Shown here: positions 9,960-19,922 of the stretch, one piece after another
Layout of the letters: every line of letters begins with the position of its first letter
Numbering within the stretch: the stretch's first letter is position 1
DNA from: Deltaproteobacteria bacterium
GTDB taxonomy: Bacteria; Desulfobacterota; Binatia; UBA12015
Length of the DNA stretch: 64,000 bases
Direction of reading: 5' to 3'
Assembly (NCBI GenBank): GCA_029262355.1
Contig: JAJCZO010000094.1
Location: 7,212-71,211 of the forward strand
Made by a program: the position numbers and the translations under genes
Notes under the pieces: model-generated
What the model saw: the letters and a program-made list of their open reading frames with translations, nothing else
The model's database searches: none
What the model was told of the DNA's origin: nothing

Positions 9960-11006
9960 GTGAGTGGCCCCGTACGGCTCGGATTTCTCGACGACACGCC
10001 CAGGGGCGCGGACCGAGCCCTCCTCGACCGGGCGCTCGCATTGGCGAGAGAACGTACCGCCCGGACGGGCCGCTTCGATGATCCCCTGGATCTCCAGATC
10101 GTCCGGGCCGAAGGACTGCCCCGCGGAAACGCGCACGCCGTCGAGGAGGCGTATGCAGAGCTTGCCCATGCGGGCGTAATGGCCGTCCTCGGCCCGGCGA
10201 TCGGCGACAACGCGCTGATCGCAACATCGCTCGCCGACCAGTTCGGGCTCCCAACCTTGAACTTCGCTGGAACCGAGCGCGCGCGGAGCCAGCAGATGTT
10301 CCACCTCCAGATCGGCTCGCACGAAGAGGAGCCGGTCCTGATCGCCCACCGGCTCGCGCGCGGCGGACACCAGCGCGTCGCGATGTTGTTCGAGGAAGCG
10401 ACCATCGGGGCGCGGTACGCGGCGTTCTTCGCCAAGGCGTGCGTCGCTGCCGGCCTAGACCTCGAGCAGCGCGTCGGCCTGCGGCCAGAGCAGGACCCGA
10501 ACGAAGCCGTACGGACCGCCGTCCGCGACGCACCGGACGCCTTGGTCTATCTCGGCCTCGGCCTCGAGCTGCCGCGGGTCACGCCCGCACTACGCACGAC
10601 GGACTTCGTGGGCTCGCTCGTCTGTAACTCATGCGGCATGTTCGGGTGGGCGGGTGCTCCATTCACCGAGGCCGTCGAAGGTTGGCGCTACATCGACGTT
10701 TTCAGCGAAGAGAACCCCGCGTTTCTCGCCGCGCGGGACGCACTCGGCCTCGGCGAGGACTCGGGGCCAACCGGGCTCGTGTACGCCGACCTCGCAACGC
10801 TCGTGGTCGAAGGGCTGGCCCACGCACCAGAGCGTACCCGCGACGGACTACGCGACGGACTCGAGCAGGTGAAGGCCATCCCGTCGGCACTCGGCCTCCC
10901 GGGAACCCAGCTCGGCTTCGGCACCTGGGACCGTGCCGCGTTGAAGGGGCCCTACCTCGTACCCCGCCGCTGGACCAACGGGCGCTCCGTCGCCTGGACC
11001 GACTGA
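9960..11006 (+). CDS. Leu/Ile/Val-binding-protein-like (Peripla_BP_6) ligand-binding protein with no recognisable signal peptide
   Basis: VRLGFLDD...LDLQIVRAEGLPRGNAHAVEEAYAELAHAGVMAVLGPAIGDNALIATSLADQFGLPTLNFAGT matches the LivK/amide-receptor fold. The N-terminus is not hydrophobic. Confidence 0.55.
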   Translation: MSGPVRLGFLDDTPRGADRALLDRALALARERTARTGRFDDPLDLQIVRAEGLPRGNAHAVEEAYAELAHAGVMAVLGPAIGDNALIATSLADQFGLPTLNFAGTERARSQQMFHLQIGSHEEEPVLIAHRLARGGHQRVAMLFEEATIGARYAAFFAKACVAAGLDLEQRVGLRPEQDPNEAVRTAVRDAPDALVYLGLGLELPRVTPALRTTDFVGSLVCNSCGMFGWAGAPFTEAVEGWRYIDVFSEENPAFLAARDALGLGEDSGPTGLVYADLATLVVEGLAHAPERTRDGLRDGLEQVKAIPSALGLPGTQLGFGTWDRAALKGPYLVPRRWTNGRSVAWTD

Positions 11007-11010
11007 CCAC

Positions 11011-11730
11011 TCAGGCCTGGACACCGGCGGCGATCTTTCGCGCCAGGTCGAGATCTTCGGGGAAGTCGATCTCGGTCCACAGCAGGTCATCCATCAACTC
11101 GAAACCGACGTCCACCTGCGCGAGAAGCTCCGGGTAGACCTCTTCGTGCTCGAGATCGATATCCCCTTGCGCGACACGCACGCCGATGAGATCGCGAAGC
11201 AGATTCGCCGCGATCTGGCCCAGCTTCAAGAACCCCACCGATTCGCCAAGCCGGTCGTACGCCCCGCGTGGAATCCGCGCGATGTCGAAAACGCGGTCTC
11301 CCTGAACCATCAGCATCTGCTCCTCTCCGCTCGCCTCGGAACGGGGGTCGAGCAAGAAGCAGCTCTCGTGGCGCGAATCGACCAAGCGCGCGATCATCTC
11401 GTCGGGCCCGAAGACGTCGGCGTCCATGACGAGCACCGATCGATCGAGCCATTCGCGCGCCGTGAAGAGCGACAGGATCGCCCCGCGTCGGAAATCGGGA
11501 TTCCGCAGGACCCGGATGTCAGGCGCACCGCCAAAAGCGGCCTCGACGTGCTCACCCCCGAACCCGACGACTACGACGATCTCCGGCACGCCCGCGGCTC
11601 GAAGCTGGCGAACGAGGCGCCCCAGAAGAGTCTCTCCCGCCACCTCGAGGAGCGCCTTCGGACGATCTTCGAGTGTGGAGCCAAAGCGCCGACCGACGCC
11701 GGCCGCGAGAATGATCGCCGATGGCTTCAT
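11011..11730 (-). CDS. LicC/PntC-like cytidylyltransferase (putative CTP:2-aminoethylphosphonate or phosphocholine cytidylyltransferase)
   Basis: MKPSAIILAAGVGRRFGSTLEDRPKALLEVAGETLLGRLVRQL resembles the LicC/PntC N-terminus. The ATG at 11730 overlaps the phnW stop (ATGA). This is the last gene of the phosphonate operon. Confidence 0.7.
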   Translation of the reverse strand: MKPSAIILAAGVGRRFGSTLEDRPKALLEVAGETLLGRLVRQLRAAGVPEIVVVVGFGGEHVEAAFGGAPDIRVLRNPDFRRGAILSLFTAREWLDRSVLVMDADVFGPDEMIARLVDSRHESCFLLDPRSEASGEEQMLMVQGDRVFDIARIPRGAYDRLGESVGFLKLGQIAANLLRDLIGVRVAQGDIDLEHEEVYPELLAQVDVGFELMDDLLWTEIDFPEDLDLARKIAAGVQA

Positions 11731-12797
11731 GCGAGAGCTCTCCCGAGCGATTCGAGGAAGCGGTCGAAGTCGTCGACCGAGAGAGCGCCCATGTTCGCGA
11801 CACGAAAAGCCGTGGCACCCAGCTGTCCCTGGCCTTCGTAGATCACGAAGCCGTCGGCTTTCAGATGGTCGTGCAGCGACTCGTACGTCGCCCCCTCCGG
11901 CAGCCCAATCGTCGTGATCGAGTTCGAGCGCCATTCGTCGGGCAAGAGGATCTCGAGACCGAGGCGCGCGAAGCCCGCGCGAAGTTGGCGGGCCGCGCGC
12001 GCGTAGCGCTCCACCCGGCCGGCCACGGTCTCCTCCAGAAGCTCGTCGAGCGCTTCGTCGAGCGCGTACAGGACTTGGACCGCGGCGGTGAACGGCACCG
12101 TACGCTTCTCGTGGGCCGCGAAGTGCCGGGGGAGGTGCAGGTAGACGCTCCGCTGCGGAATCTCGGCCATCCGCGCCATCTCCGACCGCCGGGCGAGCAC
12201 AAACCCGACTCCCGGCACGCCCTGGATACACTTGTTGGCCACCCCCACGCAGATGTCGACGCCCCAGCCTTCGACGTCGATCGGATCACCGGCGAGGCCG
12301 CTGATCGAATCGACCAACAGCAGTCGACCGGCGTCTCGCACCACGCGGCCGATGCCTTCTATGGGGTTGCGCAGACCTGTCGTCGTCTCGTGGTGCACGA
12401 CGGCGACGACCTCGATCGCAGGATCGGCGCCAAGCGCCGCGGCAATCCGTGCGGGATCGGCCCGCTCGGTCCACGCCCACTCGAGGACCACGACGTCGAC
12501 GCCATGCGTTTCCGCCATCTCGCGAATGCGCGCTCCGTACACGCCGTTCTCGACGACGAGCATCTTGCGGCCGGTGGAAACCGCCGAGCTCACGGCGGCC
12601 TCGAGAGCCAAGGTGCCCGAACCGGTGAGCGGTACCGCCGCCCAGTCACCGTCGGGAGCGAAGGCCCGAACCAGCTTCGTGCGAACAGCGTCGAGGAGGT
12701 CGCTGAACTCGGGCTCCCGATGGCAGAGGTCCCCCCGCAACATCGCCTCCGTGACCCGCGGACTCACGTTCACAGGCCCGGGGTTCAGCAGAATCAC
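11727..12797 (-). CDS. phnW: 2-aminoethylphosphonate--pyruvate transaminase-like class V aminotransferase
   Basis: ILLNPGPVNVSPRVTEAML...VVHHETTTG...GVANKCIQGVPGVGFV is typical of PhnW (AGT family). The GTG start at 12797 overlaps the ppd-beta stop (GTGA). The upstream portion of the long track ORF is discarded because it overlaps ppdB. Confidence 0.75.
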   Translation of the reverse strand: MILLNPGPVNVSPRVTEAMLRGDLCHREPEFSDLLDAVRTKLVRAFAPDGDWAAVPLTGSGTLALEAAVSSAVSTGRKMLVVENGVYGARIREMAETHGVDVVVLEWAWTERADPARIAAALGADPAIEVVAVVHHETTTGLRNPIEGIGRVVRDAGRLLLVDSISGLAGDPIDVEGWGVDICVGVANKCIQGVPGVGFVLARRSEMARMAEIPQRSVYLHLPRHFAAHEKRTVPFTAAVQVLYALDEALDELLEETVAGRVERYARAARQLRAGFARLGLEILLPDEWRSNSITTIGLPEGATYESLHDHLKADGFVIYEGQGQLGATAFRVANMGALSVDDFDRFLESLGRALA

Positions 12798-13369
12798 GCC
12801 GTGCCTCCGAGCGCGGCCCGCATGCGCGCGGTCATCTCCTGGGGCGTAAACGGAATTCGCGGCGCGGACGGACCGGACTCGGGCGCGGTCTCGACCAGAA
12901 GCAGGCTCGGACCCTCGGCACCGGCGAACTCGGCGACCCTGGCGTCGAGCGACGCCCGATCGCGCACGCGAGCCACGCGCGCATAGCCCGCCGCCGCGGC
13001 GATCTCGTCGAGCGGTACTTCGGGGGAGATCGTCGGCTGATTGCCAGTCGAGGCGTAGACGCCGTTGTCGATCACGAGGTGAAAGAAGCGCTTCGGCTTC
13101 GACACGGCGATCATGGGCAGCGTTCCGAGGTTCATCAGAACGTTGCCGTCGCCGTCGAGAACCGCGACCGGCTGGTCGGGCTGCGCAATCGCGATTCCGA
13201 GTCCGATCGAAGACGCCAGCCCCATCGAGCCAATCATGTAGAAGTGCGACGGCCGATCCCGCACCGAGCAGGCCCAACGGGAGATGAAGCCATTCGCGCA
13301 CACGACCGCGTATCCATCGAGCGCTGGCATGGCCGCTTCGACCGCATCTTTCGTCGTGAGCGCATTCAT
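12794..13369 (-). CDS. Phosphonopyruvate (or sulfopyruvate) decarboxylase beta subunit (TPP-binding C-terminal half)
   Basis: The GDG...N thiamine-diphosphate motif is present (LDGDGNVLMNLGTLPMIAVSKPKRFFHLVIDNG). The ATG overlaps the alpha-subunit stop (ATGA). Confidence 0.75.
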   Translation of the reverse strand: MNALTTKDAVEAAMPALDGYAVVCANGFISRWACSVRDRPSHFYMIGSMGLASSIGLGIAIAQPDQPVAVLDGDGNVLMNLGTLPMIAVSKPKRFFHLVIDNGVYASTGNQPTISPEVPLDEIAAAAGYARVARVRDRASLDARVAEFAGAEGPSLLLVETAPESGPSAPRIPFTPQEMTARMRAALGGTA

Positions 13370-13869
13370 CCCAAAACTCCTGGGGGCACGACCAACGCCA
13401 CGGGCTTCTGGTTCGCGTCAAAGCGATCGCGTGCCCATCGAGCGTCGTCCTCGAGCGGACGCTTGCCGAGAGCCCGCCACTCGATCTCGTAGGCGTCCAG
13501 CAGGTTCGGCATGACCCTGCCCATGACCAGATGCTCGGGGGCATCTTTTCCACCGAAGCCGCGCCAGGTGATCACCAGCAGACACGGGAGCTCGTAGATC
13601 TGCTGCAGCGAGCCAATCGCATTCAAGGAGACCCCCAAGCCCGAGTTCTGCATCAGCACGACAGGACGCCGGCCGGCCATGAAGGCCCCGGCCGCGAGAC
13701 CCATGGCCGCGTCCTCCCGCGTCTCGGCCACGTACCCCCGATCCGCCAGGGCGACCAGAACCGAACCGATCAACGAGCACGGCACGCCGGTGAAGAAATC
13801 GAAGCCTACGCCCTCGAGCGCAGAGGCGAAATCGGCCCCCTTGAACGTGGCATCACCCGAATCGCTCAT
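13366..13869 (-). CDS. Phosphonopyruvate (or sulfopyruvate) decarboxylase alpha subunit (TPP pyrimidine-binding N-terminal half)
   Basis: MSDSGDATFKGADFASALEGVGFDFFTGVPCSLIG...VLMQNSGLG is a Ppd/ComD-like N-domain. The start was refined to the internal ATG at 13869; the 63 codons upstream in the track ORF have no similarity to this family. Confidence 0.75.
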   Translation of the reverse strand: MSDSGDATFKGADFASALEGVGFDFFTGVPCSLIGSVLVALADRGYVAETREDAAMGLAAGAFMAGRRPVVLMQNSGLGVSLNAIGSLQQIYELPCLLVITWRGFGGKDAPEHLVMGRVMPNLLDAYEIEWRALGKRPLEDDARWARDRFDANQKPVALVVPPGVLG

Positions 13870-13982
13870 CGGGCCCCTTGTAAACGTCGGGGGCTCACGA
13901 TGACAACTCTGCGCCAAGAGACCCGAGTGAGATGCTCGGCCAGGTGCTCCGCATTCGCTGGGATGCTGCGGTAGCCGACCTA

Positions 13983-14347
13983 ACCATCCGGTCGAATCAG
14001 GTAGAGAGATGGGCCCGCGACGTCGAACCGCCGCGCCAGCAGCCCGGCTACGTCGCAACCCGCGCTCAGACCGCGCGGCCGAGCCGCCCCGTCATCAGGC
14101 GAAAGAACGACGTAGGCATCGAGCAACGGAGCCCGGTCCTCGACCATCGCGGGCGCCGTCGAGGGTCTCGCCCTTGGTCAGGATGCTGGCATCGGGTAGC
14201 GGCCGAAAGGCCAAAGCCGGACGCCCAGATGGGGTCGAGGCCCGCCTCCTCGACGAGTCGTGCGGAGAGGGCATCGTGAACGCCACAAACGACGACCTGG
14301 GTCCCAAGTGCGAGGCGTCGCCGCAGTGATTTCGAGGGCGGGAGCAT
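13983..14347 (-). pseudogene. pepM: Decayed phosphoenolpyruvate phosphomutase gene: a 5' fragment with at least two frameshifts and the 3' two-thirds missing
   Basis: Reading the minus strand gives three pieces. Frame 1 (from 14347): ...VVCGVHDALSARLVEEAGLDPIWASGFGLSAA, the PepM N-terminus. Frame 2 (+1): PLPDASILTKGETLDGA, comparable to GLPDAGLLTMTEVADHA. Frame 3: MVEDRAPLLDAYVV, comparable to AVDLPVIVDADTG, then ...AGCDVAGLL, with a stop near 13983. Only ~480 nt separate the upstream gene from ppdA, too little for an intact ~900-nt pepM. Confidence 0.55.
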
Positions 14348-14404
14348 CGGGGCGGGCTACGCGATCCCCATCGCGCCCGCGACTGGGAGAGGCCGCCCTA
14401 GTCT

Positions 14405-16852
14405 CTACGGCAGTGTGTAAACGTAAAGGCCCTCGTGCGCGGTCACATAGAGAGACTTGCCATCCGTGCCGCCGAAGGTGCAGTTCGTCGCCTGGCGAGG
14501 GATCGCGAGGGTATCCCAGCCAGCACCGGTCGGATCGTAGACCTCGACCGTGCTGCCCCAGGTCGCGACGTAGAGATTGCCTGCAGCGTCCAGGCACATC
14601 CCGTCTGGAACGTTCAGCCCTGAGACGAACGTCTGTTGGTTACTCAAGGAGCCGTCGGGCGCGACATCCCAGCGCAGCACGTCACCGCTGTCCGATTTCG
14701 ACATGTAGAGCTGCGTCTCATCCGAAGACAGCACGACGCCGTTGGGCCCCTCGGTCGTTCCGCCCATCCACTCGGCAGACAGGACCCCGGCCGGTGTCCG
14801 CCGGTAGAGCCCGTTGAAGGGGATCTCGCGGTCGCCTGGGTTCGCCAGCCCGTAGTGAGGGTCGGTGAAGTAGAGGGTGCCGTCCGAGCGCGTTGCGAGA
14901 TCGTTCGGGGAGTTGAAAGCGTCGCCGAGATAGTTGTCGACAACCGTCGTGACGACACCACCCGAGTCGGTCCGACTGATTCGTCGCCCTAGGTGTTCCG
15001 CAGCGAGCAAATCGCCGCTCGTATCGTTCTCGAGGCCGTTGGCTTCGTCGCTCGGCGTGCGAAAGGTCGTGATCGTGCTCGGGGGCGTGAGTCGGTAGAT
15101 CGTGTCGGCGTCGATGTCCGAGAACAGCAACGTACCGTCGGCCCGCCACACCGGCCCCTCGGTAAACTGGAACGTTTCGGAGATCGTGCCGATCGCGCCG
15201 ACCCCAAAGACCGGATTGCAGATCTCCTTCACCTCGATGTCGTCGACGAATGTGTGCATGGAAATCGGATTGGGAGATTGAATCTCGCTCCAAGAGTCGA
15301 CGAGGATTGCGCCCGTGATCCCCTGCAGAGCAGGCGTCGCGTCCGTCGTGTCGACGTGCCACGAAAGTGGCTCCGGATCCGACGCCGGCCAAATCCTCGC
15401 CTGAAGCCGAGTGTTGAACGCGTCGACCTGGTGGACCCGGTATCGAACGCGGTAGGGCACTCCGTTCGTCAGGCCCAACCCGTTGTCGATCAAGATCGAT
15501 TGCTCGACGCCGTTCACTTCCCGCCAGACGCCGATCCCGTGGAATCCACGGAAGCCCTCGACGAACACGCCGTATCCGCCTCCAGTGGGCGTATCCTGGT
15601 CGAGATAGCCGCCATTGTGGCGCATATAGAAGCCGATGCCCTGCGTATCGAGGTCCTCGAACTCCACGGTGAGCAGCGCCTCCGCGTCCATCGGCGCTTG
15701 TGGTCCGACGATTCGGGCCAGCGAGTAGCCGCTCGGTACAGGCTGTAGGCGGCCGCGCCCCGACTCGATGTCACCCACCGCCACCGACGAGGACGACGGC
15801 GGTCCTTCCGGACCCACCTCGACCCAGCCCGCAGGCCACGGGTCGCCATCGCTCGCCGTGAAGCTCTGGGTGTAAACGGTGCCGCCACAGCTCGGGGCCG
15901 CGGCGCCGTTGCACTCCACGGGGTACGAGGCGTTCGCTGGAACCGCAGCGCTGCCGACGCACGCCGTTTCGAAGTCGCTCACGCAATGCACGCACCGGGT
16001 GAGTTCGGTGAGTGTAGAGACGGTCGCGTCGCACGAGCTGCCGCCCGGAACCGTCACGTCACTACACTGGGCCGCGAACCCAATCTCGCCGACCAGCGTG
16101 TCGTCGCTGCCACCCGTGCCGACGACCGCGCCTACGGTGCCGTCACAGCCTCGATCGAGGCCCCCACACGAGCGGCAGATCGTCTTGATCAACTTCCCCT
16201 CGGCCTTGTCGAGGAGAGCCTGCGTCGAGGCCGTCGGACACGGACCGGCCTCGCCACCCGAGATCACTCTGTCCCAACACTTCTGCATGAGCTTCGACGT
16301 CGTTCGGACGAGCTTGGACCCCGCCTTGCCGACCAACCGCTGGCACTTCTCCAGCGGCGACTTCGCCGGGCTCCCGAGGTCGATGTCATCGAAGTAGACC
16401 CCTCCGAGGTCCGCAGTGGCTCCGTCGCCGAGACAGGCCAGGCAGTCCGAAACATCACCGCAGTGAGCGAGCGCGTTCGTACACCCCCTGTTCAGCAAGT
16501 CCGGGCACGCAGGAAGGTTCCAGCCGATCGAGACGAGCGTCTCATCGTCACCGCCTGTGCCGCAGACCTTGTCGGCGCCACCACAGGCCTTGTCGATGAC
16601 GGTGCGCAGCTTCCCAGCCGCCTTCGAGAGCTTGAGTGCGGTCTTCGGTTCGAGCTCGCAATCGGTGCCGGGGGGCAGCCTGCCCGACACGAGCTTGTCG
16701 CCGCAGCGTGCCAGCGCATTCATCCTCTGTTGGGCATGGGTCGCCGAAGCCTTCGCGATCGCGCGTCGACAGCTCTCCGGATCGGCCTGGGCTGGGGAGA
16801 CGGCGGCGAGAAGCCCCAGTACGAGAAGCGTTGAGATCGCGATTGTCTTCAC
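14405..16852 (-). CDS. Secreted multidomain protein: signal peptide, two Cys-rich ~110-aa repeats, a central beta-rich region, and a C-terminal SMP-30/gluconolactonase/LRE-like beta-propeller
   Basis: The GTG start at 16852 gives VKTIAISTLLVLGLLAAVSPAQA as a signal peptide. The Cys-rich repeats read CxxxI.K...C.DKLVSG..PPGTDCE...KACGGADKVCGTGGDDETLV. The C-terminus (TEGPVWRADGTLLFSDIDADTIYRL...NSPNDLATRSDGTLYFTDP...PNGVVLSSDETQLYMS...NVPDGMCLDAAGNLYVATWG) is SGL-like. Confidence 0.6.
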   Translation of the reverse strand: MKTIAISTLLVLGLLAAVSPAQADPESCRRAIAKASATHAQQRMNALARCGDKLVSGRLPPGTDCELEPKTALKLSKAAGKLRTVIDKACGGADKVCGTGGDDETLVSIGWNLPACPDLLNRGCTNALAHCGDVSDCLACLGDGATADLGGVYFDDIDLGSPAKSPLEKCQRLVGKAGSKLVRTTSKLMQKCWDRVISGGEAGPCPTASTQALLDKAEGKLIKTICRSCGGLDRGCDGTVGAVVGTGGSDDTLVGEIGFAAQCSDVTVPGGSSCDATVSTLTELTRCVHCVSDFETACVGSAAVPANASYPVECNGAAAPSCGGTVYTQSFTASDGDPWPAGWVEVGPEGPPSSSSVAVGDIESGRGRLQPVPSGYSLARIVGPQAPMDAEALLTVEFEDLDTQGIGFYMRHNGGYLDQDTPTGGGYGVFVEGFRGFHGIGVWREVNGVEQSILIDNGLGLTNGVPYRVRYRVHQVDAFNTRLQARIWPASDPEPLSWHVDTTDATPALQGITGAILVDSWSEIQSPNPISMHTFVDDIEVKEICNPVFGVGAIGTISETFQFTEGPVWRADGTLLFSDIDADTIYRLTPPSTITTFRTPSDEANGLENDTSGDLLAAEHLGRRISRTDSGGVVTTVVDNYLGDAFNSPNDLATRSDGTLYFTDPHYGLANPGDREIPFNGLYRRTPAGVLSAEWMGGTTEGPNGVVLSSDETQLYMSKSDSGDVLRWDVAPDGSLSNQQTFVSGLNVPDGMCLDAAGNLYVATWGSTVEVYDPTGAGWDTLAIPRQATNCTFGGTDGKSLYVTAHEGLYVYTLP

Positions 16853-17057
16853 GTCGCCCAGGATTCCGGGTCTCCGCGCCCGAGTCCACCCCCGTCTTCG
16901 GAGGCCGCAGGCTCGTGCCCGCACGCCATAGGGAGTCGCGTGGCGCAGATCCGCGGGTTCCGTCCGCGCCAGGAATCGCTCTACGGTCGGAAGGGCTCTC
17001 GTACGAAGATACCAGTGGGTTCCGTCGGTGCGGGCAATCGTTCTAGAGTCCAGGTCG

Positions 17058-19922
17058 ATGCTCCTTCTCCGCCTCTCCTGCGCCGCCGCGATCCTTTGGT
17101 GCGCGGGGGCGGCATTCGCGGCCGACGCGGGTGTCGAGGGCAAGAAGCTCGTGATCGTCGACGGGGGGCTCAGCGGGAACGACAAGATCGCCTTCGTCGC
17201 CAAGGGCGCGGACCTCACCAAGGGAGCCGGGACCGATCCCGCGACGATCTCGGCGACGATAGAGCTCTCGCGCGGAGAGATCGGCGGCGCGGTCTCGATT
17301 CCCGCCGGCCCCCTGGGGCCGGGCGTTCCTGGGTGGCGTCAGAATGACGGCTCGCCAGCGCGCTACCAGAACTCGAGTGCGGCGAGCGGCGTGCCGACGG
17401 GAGCTCGGAGCCTGGTCGTGAAGCCCGGCAAGCTTCTGAAGCTCACGACCCGCACTCTCGGGGATGTGCCGATCGATTTTGCGGCGTTCGGCGCATCGAC
17501 CTCGACCCTCCGGACCGTGGCCACGATCGAGAACGACGGCGAGATCTTCAGACATTGCACCGCGTTTCCCGCCGCCGGCATCAAGCGGACCGGGCCCAAC
17601 GGGTCCGGCCGCTCCAAGCTCGTGGCGAGGAACGGCATACCCACGGAGTGCCCCGGCCTCGTCCTCTTTCCGAACCCGCCTCTGCCTTTCGTTGCTCTGT
17701 CGGCGCGGCTCTACTTCGACGCAGCGAGCCCTTCGGCGCTCGCAGCCGCGATCGCCCGCGTATCCCATCCCGAAACCGCCGGCTACTTCTCTAGTTTTCG
17801 GGCGACGGTCGACGGGGCTCTGGGGTCGCTTCCCGCGGCGTCCGACGACACACGCGCGAAGGTCGCGAAGGCCGCCGGCCTGCTTCACGTTCTCGGGCAA
17901 ACCCCACCGGGAGGCAGCGGATTCTCGAGCTACCGCGACGTAGCGGTGACCGCGCTGCTCGGCATCGTCGATCGCACCGCGCTCGACTCCGTGGCCGAGT
18001 TCGTCACGCCGCCTGCGAACTTACTGCACGTGCTCCAGGATTCAGGGCGCCTTCAATCGATGACGGAGGCGTATGACTTCCTGCGTGGCACCGGGATCGC
18101 TCCGGGCGACGACGCGATCATCCGCGCGTTGATTGCCACATGGGCCGATGCGTACGTCCAGGACTGGAACCTGATCGGGGATCCGTTCGGGTTGTTCGCG
18201 GGACACCGTGACAACTGGGCGATCAAGGCCGGCAGCGCGCTCGTCACCACCGCTCTCGCGCTGCCCGGCCACGCTTCCGCCCCCACGTGGCTCGCGGCGG
18301 GCCTGACCTACCTGAACGAATCGCTCCGAAACGTCGTGATGGCGCCGGGTTGGTACGCGGAGAGCCCGCACTACGTGAACTACTCCCTCAACAACCTCGC
18401 CTCCACTGCCTGGCACGTGCGCAACGCGACCGGGGAAGACTGGTTCGATGATCTCGCGCCGTTGGTGGACGTTGCGCTGGCCCTGCGTCAGCCCGACGGC
18501 CAGTCGGCCGCCTTCGAAGAGGGCGTTCCCAACGTCTTCCCGCACGACGTTCTGGCGGCAGCGTACCCGACACGGGCAGCCCAGATGCTCTGGGCGTGGA
18601 ACCAGAGCAGCCAGAATCCCGTGAATTACGACAACCAACAGATTCATTCCGTAACGCGATTCCTGGTCGCGGATCTCGTCACCTTGCCATCGGCGCCCAC
18701 CGGCGCCGCGACGACCTTTCTCGACGGCGACACCCACGTCGCAGCACTGCGTTCGGGCTGGGGCCCGGGAGCCACGCAGCTCACGTCTTTCACCGCGCTC
18801 GACCACGCCAGCACGGAGAGCGTCTCGTCCCGCCACAACATGGAGAATCCACTCGACGTGACGCTGTTCGCCGCGGGGGCGATGCTGCTCCCCACCGCGA
18901 GCGGCGGTCCCCAGGTGACCAGCTCAGCGAATCGCGCCGTCTATCTCGAACCCGGCTCGAAGAACATTCCGCTGGTGGATGGCGATGCGCCCTACCTCGT
19001 CGACCCACTGGCGGCCCAATTCGGCGAGCGACTGGACGGAGAAGTCGTCGACACCGCGAGCACACTCGTTGCCACCTTTGCAGCCGGGGTATCCGTCGAG
19101 CGCACGGTCGCACTGGTCGGCGACGAGTACGGCGTCGTCGTGGACCAGTTCCACGCAGACGCGCCGCGCGAGTACGGCGCGACCTGGCGTGGCCGCGGCG
19201 ATGCGAGCGTGCGAAGCCTCTCCCCCACCCAGCTTGGTGTCGACTACGACTGGCCAACCTCCTCGACCCCCACCGCTCACCTTGCGGTGGACGTCGCTGC
19301 GAGCAGCCCCCTCACCGGGATCGTGGATGCCAGCCTCTATGCCCCCGCATGGGGTGTGGAGGAAACGATCGCGCCACTGCGCGTTTCCGCCACCGGTTCG
19401 GTGCTTCATTTCCTGACCGTGCTGCGACCCCGTGCCAACGGAGCTCCGCCGTCGGCGATCACGTCCGTGGGAGGTGGCACGACCGCGGCCTTCCGCGTGA
19501 CCCTCGCCACGACCGAGCACTTGATCGCCACCGGCGGCGGCGCTCCCCTTGTGGCCGACGGAGTCACGAGCGATGGGACTCTCGCAATCGTCCGGCGCGA
19601 ATCGGGTGTCACGACGAGTCTCACCATGGTGCGCGGGACCTCCATCGACGCGGGCCCCAGCGCCGGCGTCCTCGAATCGGATGAACCCGCCACGGTCTCC
19701 GTGGCCATTGCCGCAGGCAGCGCGCGCGTCGACGTGAGTCCTGACGTTGCCGACTCCTTACGCGTCACACTGCGCGATCTCCCCTCGCTGAGCGGCACCG
19801 CCGCGCACGCGGCAACGTTCGACGGCGAACCACTCACCGGCGGATCGTTCTCACAATCCGGCACCGAGTTTCACATCCGCGTGCCCCACGGTGGCACCGT
19901 CGCGATCACACCAGTGCCCTGA
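17058..19922 (+). CDS. Large secreted protein, tentatively heparinase II/III-like or alginate-lyase-like polysaccharide lyase fold (alpha/alpha toroid + beta-sandwich)
   Basis: The signal peptide is MLLLRLSCAAAILWCAGAAFAADA, with the start refined to 17058. The protein is about 955 aa and Ala/Gly-rich. The family assignment is tentative and rests on architecture and weak motifs (WYAESPHYVNYSLNNLA). Confidence 0.4.
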   Translation: MLLLRLSCAAAILWCAGAAFAADAGVEGKKLVIVDGGLSGNDKIAFVAKGADLTKGAGTDPATISATIELSRGEIGGAVSIPAGPLGPGVPGWRQNDGSPARYQNSSAASGVPTGARSLVVKPGKLLKLTTRTLGDVPIDFAAFGASTSTLRTVATIENDGEIFRHCTAFPAAGIKRTGPNGSGRSKLVARNGIPTECPGLVLFPNPPLPFVALSARLYFDAASPSALAAAIARVSHPETAGYFSSFRATVDGALGSLPAASDDTRAKVAKAAGLLHVLGQTPPGGSGFSSYRDVAVTALLGIVDRTALDSVAEFVTPPANLLHVLQDSGRLQSMTEAYDFLRGTGIAPGDDAIIRALIATWADAYVQDWNLIGDPFGLFAGHRDNWAIKAGSALVTTALALPGHASAPTWLAAGLTYLNESLRNVVMAPGWYAESPHYVNYSLNNLASTAWHVRNATGEDWFDDLAPLVDVALALRQPDGQSAAFEEGVPNVFPHDVLAAAYPTRAAQMLWAWNQSSQNPVNYDNQQIHSVTRFLVADLVTLPSAPTGAATTFLDGDTHVAALRSGWGPGATQLTSFTALDHASTESVSSRHNMENPLDVTLFAAGAMLLPTASGGPQVTSSANRAVYLEPGSKNIPLVDGDAPYLVDPLAAQFGERLDGEVVDTASTLVATFAAGVSVERTVALVGDEYGVVVDQFHADAPREYGATWRGRGDASVRSLSPTQLGVDYDWPTSSTPTAHLAVDVAASSPLTGIVDASLYAPAWGVEETIAPLRVSATGSVLHFLTVLRPRANGAPPSAITSVGGGTTAAFRVTLATTEHLIATGGGAPLVADGVTSDGTLAIVRRESGVTTSLTMVRGTSIDAGPSAGVLESDEPATVSVAIAAGSARVDVSPDVADSLRVTLRDLPSLSGTAAHAATFDGEPLTGGSFSQSGTEFHIRVPHGGTVAITPVP

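Follow-up and report, generated by a model that had tools for sequence, protein, structure and literature searches.

The 64-kb window analysed here is part of a 103.7-kb contig (JAJCZO010000094.1) from a metagenome-assembled genome (MAG) attributed to a Deltaproteobacteria bacterium of the Binatia (GCA_029262355.1). On its minus strand, between positions 14347 and 11011, it carries what by gene context appears to be an operon for the synthesis and activation of 2-aminoethylphosphonate (AEP), in which the gene for the entry enzyme, the phosphoenolpyruvate (PEP) mutase PepM (also Ppm), is dead. The local pepM, a fusion gene in the relatives, is a genuine pseudogene with a multi-step scar rather than the product of a sequencing slip, and the four genes behind it are of full length and retain the 4-nt overlaps, the leader and the catalytic motifs. 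In the direction of transcription the locus comprises:

14347 to about 14105, minus strand: pepM pseudogene remnant, about codons 1-82 of an ancestral PepM-NTP_transf_3 fusion of about 555 residues, in three frames; the 3' limit is approximate
14117 to 13905, minus strand: remnant of an unrelated small Rng_hyd_C open reading frame (ORF; aromatic-ring-hydroxylase C-terminal, thioredoxin-like), recognized by PF21274 and the homologues P0249-P0251
13870 to 13907, minus strand: conserved leader of about 38 nt with an AAGGGG ribosome-binding site, 5' of ppdA, recognized by sequence reading and blastn
13869-13366, minus strand: ppdA, alpha subunit (TPP_enzyme_N) of a split phosphonopyruvate-decarboxylase-like enzyme; 167 residues, intact
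13369-12794, minus strand: ppdB, beta subunit (TPP_enzyme_C); 191 residues, intact, ATGA overlap with ppdA
12797-11727, minus strand: AEP aminotransferase (PhnW/AepZ type, class V); 356 residues, intact, GTG start overlapping the ppdB stop
11730-11011, minus strand: PntC/LicC-like nucleotidyltransferase (NTP_transf_3); 239 residues, intact, ATGA overlap with the aminotransferase gene

The scar and the genes behind it

The pepM remnant can be followed through three frames. Frame 1 (14347-14201) reads MLPPSKSLRRRLALGTQVVVCGVHDALSARLVEEAGLDPIWASGFGLSA, frame 2 (14199-14149) reads LPDASILTKGETLDGAR, and frame 3 begins at 14147 with MVED. When the DNA is aligned with that of three intact orthologues, the frameshifts prove to be deletions of 8 nt (14199/14198) and 2 nt (about 14157/14156), and the pepM homology fades by about 14105. 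The stitched translation matches PF13714 (E 1.2e-7, 32.1 bits) and finds PEP phosphomutase 5UNC as its best PDB match (E 3.5e-9), over only about 55-70 residues; with the intact PepM of a related locus, L012, as tblastn query, residues 1-49 are 80% identical in frame 1 and residues 39-69 are 65% identical. The equivalents of the catalytic loop, of Arg159 and of His190 are deleted, as is the region of the Ppm motif EDKX5NS, and what is left qualifies neither as an intact PEP mutase nor by its motif as a Ppm. It does qualify as a pseudogene, being syntenic with intact orthologues and disabled by two deletions and the loss of about 85% of its length, a figure which follows from the 534-555 residues of the PepM-NTP_transf_3 fusions that stand for the ancestral gene. 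An earlier, sequence-only reading had proposed a pepM fragment of about 365 nt in three frames, spanning residues 1 to about 125, with the 3' two-thirds absent. The three-frame N-terminus stands; the fragment is shorter, at about 82 codons, and the syntenic fusions imply a considerably larger loss. Of the interval 13870-14404, which that reading had proposed to align with PepM, the part from 14347 to about 14105 holds the fragment and the frameshifts, and the stretch 14117-13905 is not pepM. Elsewhere in the window, tblastn with an intact orthologue found no further PepM-like sequence.

In place of about 1.4 kb of pepM stands a filler of about 210 nt, itself truncated and interrupted by a premature stop. 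In frame 3 it reads SLYLIRPDG*VGYRSIPANAEHLAEHL, and its in-frame TAG (13982-13980) takes the place of a tyrosine that is conserved among the homologues (LYLIRPDG*VGYRS). With this codon taken as tyrosine, the filler matches the PF21274 domain Rng_hyd_C at E 1.1e-4 and 22.8 bits, which is under the gathering score, and a word-index search made with the same substitution among 5.8 billion proteins yielded three small proteins (P0249-P0251) that are 57-58% identical to it (E 6e-7 to 3e-4). These homologues share a conserved ESLYLIRPDGYVGYRS motif, and two of the three carry PF21274. An exhaustive HMMER search with the part before the stop returned low-complexity matches to giant proteins only. 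The filler shows no similarity to PepM fusions or to the locus of any relative, and no donor copy turned up in the window or among the related loci retrieved. Judged by these matches, the scar is a composite, in which a 5' piece of pepM abuts the 3' piece of an ORF that is unrelated and itself dead. No Rfam family matched within it, and a scan detected no promoter-like site, only weak terminator-like hairpins, which we leave uninterpreted; base composition is unremarkable across the region.

Homology with the related loci restarts at 13907, about 38 nt before the start of ppdA, and blastn aligns this leader (13907/13909-13865) with the sequence just 5' of ppdA in loci L003, L006, L009 and L011 at 77-80% identity. 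A long ORF that would extend ppdA upstream to 14058 was considered as a true N-terminal extension and ruled out, as every orthologue starts at MS(H/D)SG. The four genes that follow all translate cleanly, and the coupling by 4-nt start/stop overlaps that the sequence-only reading had pointed out is confirmed at all three junctions (13369-13366, 12797-12794 and 11730-11727). Its gene names (ppd-alpha, ppd-beta, PhnW-like and LicC/PntC-like) find support in Pfam, NCBIfam and PDB matches. The products of ppdA and ppdB belong to PF02776 and PF02775, respectively. On TIGR03297, the equivalog model of the single-chain phosphonopyruvate decarboxylase (Ppd) with a cut-off of 312.5, the two subunits, scored separately (120 + 165 bits), reach 120.4 bits over profile positions 1-154 and 165 bits over positions 171-358. 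On the models of the sulfopyruvate decarboxylase ComDE they reach 108.4 bits (TIGR03845, alpha subunit; cut-off 147.95) and 160.8 bits (TIGR03846; cut-off 221.5), and neither is a ComDE equivalog by these models. The aminotransferase scores 363.5 bits on the PhnW-AepZ model TIGR03301, exceeding the cut-off of 360.8 by a narrow margin. It has the pyridoxal-phosphate-lysine motif ANKCIQG, including the lysine that is mutated in 9KKA, and its top five PDB matches are the AEP-pyruvate transaminases 9KK8, 9KKA, 1M32 and 7E7G and the aminotransferase domain of the PntC fusion 6PD1. The nucleotidyltransferase belongs to PF12804 (E 2.5e-20), with the PntC domain of T. denticola Tde1415 (6PD1/6PD2) as its best PDB match over residues 4-232 (E 5e-13) and LicC (1JYK) as the next. 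The 239-residue protein is a homologue of PntC over its full length and a putative cytidylyltransferase that may prefer AEP.

Related loci and the ancestral operon

Relatives of the aminotransferase at 76-89% identity are numerous, and several are named Candidatus Binatia. The loci around such genes, together with the gene upstream of the scar, show what the window has lost:

L006, L012, L015 and L017: PepM::NTP_transf_3 fusion of 534-555 residues, first or second gene upstream of ppdA; then, in all four, ppdA-ppdB-aminotransferase-nucleotidyltransferase
L012: fusion preceded by the same SMP-30/gluconolactonase-like (SGL) gene that precedes the window scar
L009 and L016: fusion present, 4.3 kb upstream of ppdA, behind an inserted cassette of three genes (unknown, AAA_5, HTH)
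L003, L004 and L005: cassette present; no pepM within 7 kb
L011 (GCA_029243485.1): neither pepM nor a remnant at the locus; module intact
Window, 14405 to 16795, minus strand: SGL gene directly upstream of the scar (PF08450, E 1.2e-44)

The fusion of L006, L012, L015 and L017 lies where the scar lies in the window, and this synteny supports the core of the sequence-only reading, an AEP-type operon with a dead local entry gene. The correspondence extends to the flanks: the SGL protein of L012 is 75% identical to window positions 16795-14408 (tblastn), and the module is followed by CoA_transf_3 and purL in L006, L012 and L015. In L017, an unannotated gene of 333 residues stands between the fusion and ppdA. 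Transcription of ppdA in the window probably proceeds by read-through across the scar from the upstream SGL/pepM promoter.

Loss of the local pepM is not confined to the window. No pepM was found within 7-8 kb of the modules of L011 and L003/L004/L005, and in L003 the pepM beyond the cassette is gone. L011 is probably the closest sampled relative of the window, judging by the highest purL and CoA-transferase identities and by a shared inserted Peripla_BP_6 gene (71% identity). The losses in the two genomes must nevertheless, on the sequences compared, have been independent, because the window remnant retains 80% identity with intact orthologues and the synonymous sites between window and L011 are saturated. 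The Peripla_BP_6 gene lies between nucleotidyltransferase and CoA-transferase (window 9960-11006, plus strand; L011:9792-10829) and is found only in these two. Both belong to the three lineages whose local pepM is not intact; the third, L003/L004/L005, lacks pepM and the Peripla_BP_6 gene alike. Its co-occurrence with pepM loss may be a coincidence or reflect a shared ancestral insertion. A search of the sister genome GCA_029243485.1 by protein accession range gave no PepM hits; this search was biased by its word index and missed known orthologues too.

A more distant clade (L034, L036-L043), found in a metagenome scan and with about 53% ppdA identity, has the same ppdA-ppdB-aminotransferase-nucleotidyltransferase block, and where its loci have full flanks, the 8 kb to each side contain no PepM homologue; L035, a closely related contig at the same identity level, does have a piece of pepM, some 1.4 kb 5' of ppdA. 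Behind the module of L036 (7983-16065), and likewise in L034 and L037-L043, come a CDP-alcohol phosphatidyltransferase-family protein, an LPG_synthase_TM protein and glycosyltransferases of GT2 and GT4, a context that would fit phosphonolipid or phosphonoglycan synthesis; the distant-clade locus looks like a candidate for such a pathway with pepM in trans. As far as gene order can tell, a pepM in cis is not obligatory for the module. The sequence-only reading had considered the window unusual in combining a dead entry gene with intact downstream genes, a view that does not hold up against the absence of pepM in L011, in L003/L004/L005 and in the distant clade, and its displacement by 4.3 kb in L009 and L016.

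The intact orthologues differ from characterized mutases in their catalytic loop, where they read EDN[IV]FPKRCS (EDNxFPKRCS) in place of EDKX5NS. Aligned to the Mytilus and Streptomyces PEP mutases, they conserve the Mg2+ ligands, Arg159 and His190, with Lys116 replaced by Asn and Asn122 by Cys (EDNVFPKRCS). The KRC triplet in this loop resembles the KRCGH loop found in the lyase members of the superfamily (methylisocitrate lyase, isocitrate lyase). On TIGR02320 the orthologues score 265-290 bits, below the cut-off of 319.55, and on the phosphonopyruvate hydrolase model TIGR02321 256-273 bits, below 374.4. The label 'phosphonate' for the operon accordingly derives from gene context rather than from a validated PEP mutase, because the orthologous PepMs fail both the EDKX5NS motif and the TIGR02320 cut-off. 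Every PepM-like gene found beside this split-Ppd family has the variant (L012:5245-6114, L006, L015-L017, L013, L014, L020 and L030), including two stand-alone PepMs, one in a PepM-ppdA-ppdB-aminotransferase-nucleotidyltransferase block (L014) and one in a 2-hydroxyacid-dehydrogenase/aminotransferase context (L013). Among the matches listed, 106 of 120 homologues have EDN..RCS, from several bacterial phyla and Aspergillus, in a word-indexed search that favours such matches. Published surveys have used EDKX5NS as the criterion for a valid Ppm/pepM (PMC6697681, PMC8942020, PMC8931226); the orthologues lack it, and surveys filtering on that motif would therefore discard them. We found no description of the EDN...CS variant in the literature. 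An arseno-organic 'PPM' (PMC4943196) was set aside as a precedent, since its annotation is that of a 2,3-bisphosphoglycerate-independent mutase and its cluster, which makes an arsenic metabolite, is confined to actinomycetes.

Some further features of these loci deserve mention. The cassette between pepM and ppdA (L009:1586-5830, L016:2537-6813, L003:2710-6837) encodes a protein of about 530 residues without Pfam match, an AAA_5 ATPase and an HTH_3 protein of 456-500 residues, and looks like a mobile or defence-type insertion. On the plus strand of the window, an ORF of 964 residues without Pfam match (17028-19922) is inserted, relative to L012, between the SGL gene and a divergent gene of about 290 residues; its 5' end overlaps an over-long upstream extension of the SGL ORF, and the conserved divergent gene starts at 19922. 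Finally, a 4-kb contig binned as 'Alphaproteobacteria bacterium' (L001, JAFMJW010000290.1) carries the same ppdB-aminotransferase-nucleotidyltransferase block, with 73% aminotransferase identity, followed by an ORF at the position of the PF04794 YdjC gene of L017 (matched by position alone); it may be a mis-binned Binatia-like contig or reflect a transfer.

Constraint on the module and the proposed supply of phosphonopyruvate

Has the module decayed along with its entry gene? Pairwise ratios of nonsynonymous to synonymous divergence (dN/dS) for the four genes are 0.04-0.16, compared with 0.10-0.12 for the flanking purL. They amount to 0.04-0.13 for ppdA, which is 81-89% identical to its orthologues, 0.08-0.13 for ppdB, 0.06-0.10 for the aminotransferase and 0.11-0.16 for the nucleotidyltransferase. 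With dS around 1 among the relatives, the branches are long and roughly star-like. In a three-taxon comparison, the terminal-branch dN of the window is 0.038 for ppdA, 0.052 for ppdB, 0.036 for the aminotransferase and 0.081 for the nucleotidyltransferase, inside or under the range of the relatives that keep pepM. Private replacements, defined as changes at positions invariant in all other taxa, number 5 of 529 in the four window genes, the joint lowest count among nine taxa. The pepM remnant has 4 of 48, compared with 0-2 of about 45 in intact in-group orthologues; the difference between the remnant and its neighbours has a Fisher p of 0.004, or of 0.10 without two changes that adjoin the 8-nt deletion. 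A test with fewer assumptions considers the small disabling lesions (the 8-nt deletion, the 2-nt deletion and the TAG). All three fall within the 478 nt of the scar and the neighbouring 2859 nt are free of them, for which equal lack of constraint gives p = 0.003, or 0.02 when one lesion is counted as the primary hit. The comparative rates and the lesion distribution, small as the numbers are, favour continued purifying selection on ppdA through pntC since the death of pepM. A pathway in mid-decay, as the sequence-only reading had offered among its options, is disfavoured by this analysis.

In L011, the terminal-branch dN of the aminotransferase and the nucleotidyltransferase (L011:8001-9787) is the highest of all taxa (0.080 and 0.093), and that of purL the lowest. 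Unlike in the window, the two genes may there be under mildly relaxed constraint. Because of these high values, the operon genes of the window look closer to L009 and L003, whereas its flanking genes are closest to L011.

What, then, feeds the module? We propose the following scenario. The ancestral operon would have had the order (SGL)-[PepM::NTP_transf_3 fusion]-ppdA-ppdB-AEP aminotransferase-PntC-like nucleotidyltransferase, and by its context would have made AEP and activated it as a cytidine monophosphate (CMP) conjugate. In the window genome the fusion gene has been destroyed, leaving about 82 codons and the remnant of a foreign ORF, and the module would have kept working on phosphonopyruvate from outside the locus, the likeliest source of which would be another PEP-mutase gene at a different place in the genome. 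We hold this combination of a genuine pseudogene, a maintained module and a supply in trans to be somewhat more probable than not. Several points weigh against it. A long neutral evolution of the remnant is no more than suggested by its 2-4 replacements (p 0.004-0.10), and branch-specific dN/dS is a crude measure when synonymous sites are saturated (dS about 1). The canonical Ppm motif is absent from the intact orthologues, so that the ancestral first reaction would be read from context. Moreover, no second pepM was found in the search, which covered the 64 kb of the window.

The strongest competitor is a recent loss, after which the pathway is dead and the four downstream genes are too young to have gathered lesions. 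The preserved similarity of the remnant over residues 1-49 speaks for it, as does the failure to find a second pepM in the window; with only 2-4 private replacements, the inactivation must be young relative to the long terminal branch. However, the scar records at least 4-5 independent events (arrival of a foreign ORF, truncation, nonsense mutation, and the 8-nt and 2-nt deletions), next to 2.86 kb free of lesions (p 0.003-0.02). Moreover, the window genes are tied lowest in private changes at invariant sites, and two related lineages with independent local loss of pepM also keep intact modules. On balance we regard a recent loss as unlikely, if quite conceivable.

We also considered, as a speculation that we hold to be doubtful, that ppdA-ppdB-aminotransferase-PntC is a self-standing module independent of a neighbouring mutase, and that the EDNxFPKRCS 'PepM', whose lyase-like KRC loop replaces the Ppm Asn, is an uncharacterised subfamily dropped by motif-based surveys. 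If the EDNxFPKRCS enzyme were a non-canonical mutase or catalysed another entry reaction, and the module were fed otherwise, it would be clear why close relatives have lost the local gene three times and yet keep the module from decay.

A further alternative has the downstream enzymes acting on a substrate formed independently of PEP mutase, be it phosphonopyruvate obtained by transaminating scavenged phosphonoalanine, AEP salvaged from the environment and then activated, or a 3-substituted pyruvate that is no phosphonate, such as sulfopyruvate. The split decarboxylase scores nearly equally on the Ppd and sulfopyruvate-decarboxylase models and stays under both cut-offs, the module recurs without pepM in cis, and window and L011 share the ligand-binding Peripla_BP_6 gene beside it. 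Yet the aminotransferase is an AEP-aminotransferase equivalog whose best structural relatives are AEP transaminases, and the nucleotidyltransferase needs a phosph(on)ate nucleophile, contrary to sulfonates, according to the enzymology of LicC and PntC (PMC6697681). Salvage of AEP would leave the strong constraint on ppdA and ppdB unexplained, and the Peripla_BP_6 protein lacks a signal peptide as well as neighbouring transporter partners. A substrate of this kind thus seems improbable to us. Least of all do we believe in an assembly or sequencing artefact hiding a full-length pepM, a very improbable reading that could appeal to the assembly-level nature of the MAG sequence and to the lack of a match for the exact 8-nt-deletion junction in JGI metagenome contigs, an independent collection, but that is opposed by the perfect synteny of both flanks, by the unremarkable composition, and by the nature of the lesions, since an 8-nt deletion and the replacement of 1.4 kb by a foreign fragment with its own nonsense codon are atypical of homopolymer errors or chimeric joins.

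Relation to known systems

Phosphonate production is diagnosed from genomes with pepM as the only marker. In the window and in related lineages, a Ppd-aminotransferase-PntC module that is conserved and seems to be under selection lacks an adjacent pepM, which makes marker-based calls of producers and non-producers fallible both ways for fragmented MAGs. The EDNxFPKRCS clade is in turn widespread and occurs in classic phosphonate contexts across several phyla; if its members are active mutases, environmental phosphonate potential is underestimated. Taken alone, the window offers one pseudogene in one MAG, and the event is an ordinary gene loss in a known type of operon. What it adds is modest: as far as the sequences indicate, the module persists repeatedly under selection without a neighbouring mutase, and the mutase-like enzymes of the clade fall outside the canonical definition of Ppm.

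In gene set and logic, the operon equals the Ppm-Ppd-AEP aminotransferase clusters with PntC (Rice et al. 2019, PMC6697681; Li and Horsman 2022, PMC8942020). It differs from them in its mutase, which is a pseudogene in the window and carries EDNxFPKRCS in the orthologues, and in the division of Ppd into two subunits. Fusion of the mutase to a PF12804 nucleotidyltransferase is found in 33% of the Ppm proteins in RefSeq (PMC6697681; PMC8942020); compared with the known clusters, the relatives of the window possess a second nucleotidyltransferase domain, so that a free one exists beside the fused one. The flanking genes that were examined revealed neither a LicD-type transferase nor any other that would consume CMP-AEP.

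Split phosphonopyruvate decarboxylases of the rhizocticin type (PMC8942020) have, like the window, PF02776 and PF02775 on separate, translationally coupled polypeptides. In rhizocticin-type clusters, however, an aldolase (RhiG) comes next and ppm is kept, whereas in the window an AEP aminotransferase and PntC come next and there is no working ppm. The sulfopyruvate decarboxylase ComD/ComE is likewise a thiamine-pyrophosphate decarboxylase of two subunits, with the same size and with profile scores near those of Ppd; the window proteins stay under both of its cut-offs, and their neighbours are genes of the AEP pathway, not of coenzyme M or sulfolactate metabolism. With ordinary bacterial deletion and insertion pseudogenes, finally, the pepM remnant has in common the truncation, the small frameshifting deletions, the foreign nonsense fragment and perhaps an evolution faster than that of its neighbours. 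There is no difference in mechanism; what sets the locus apart is that the loss strikes the committed step and the other genes of the operon remain under constraint.

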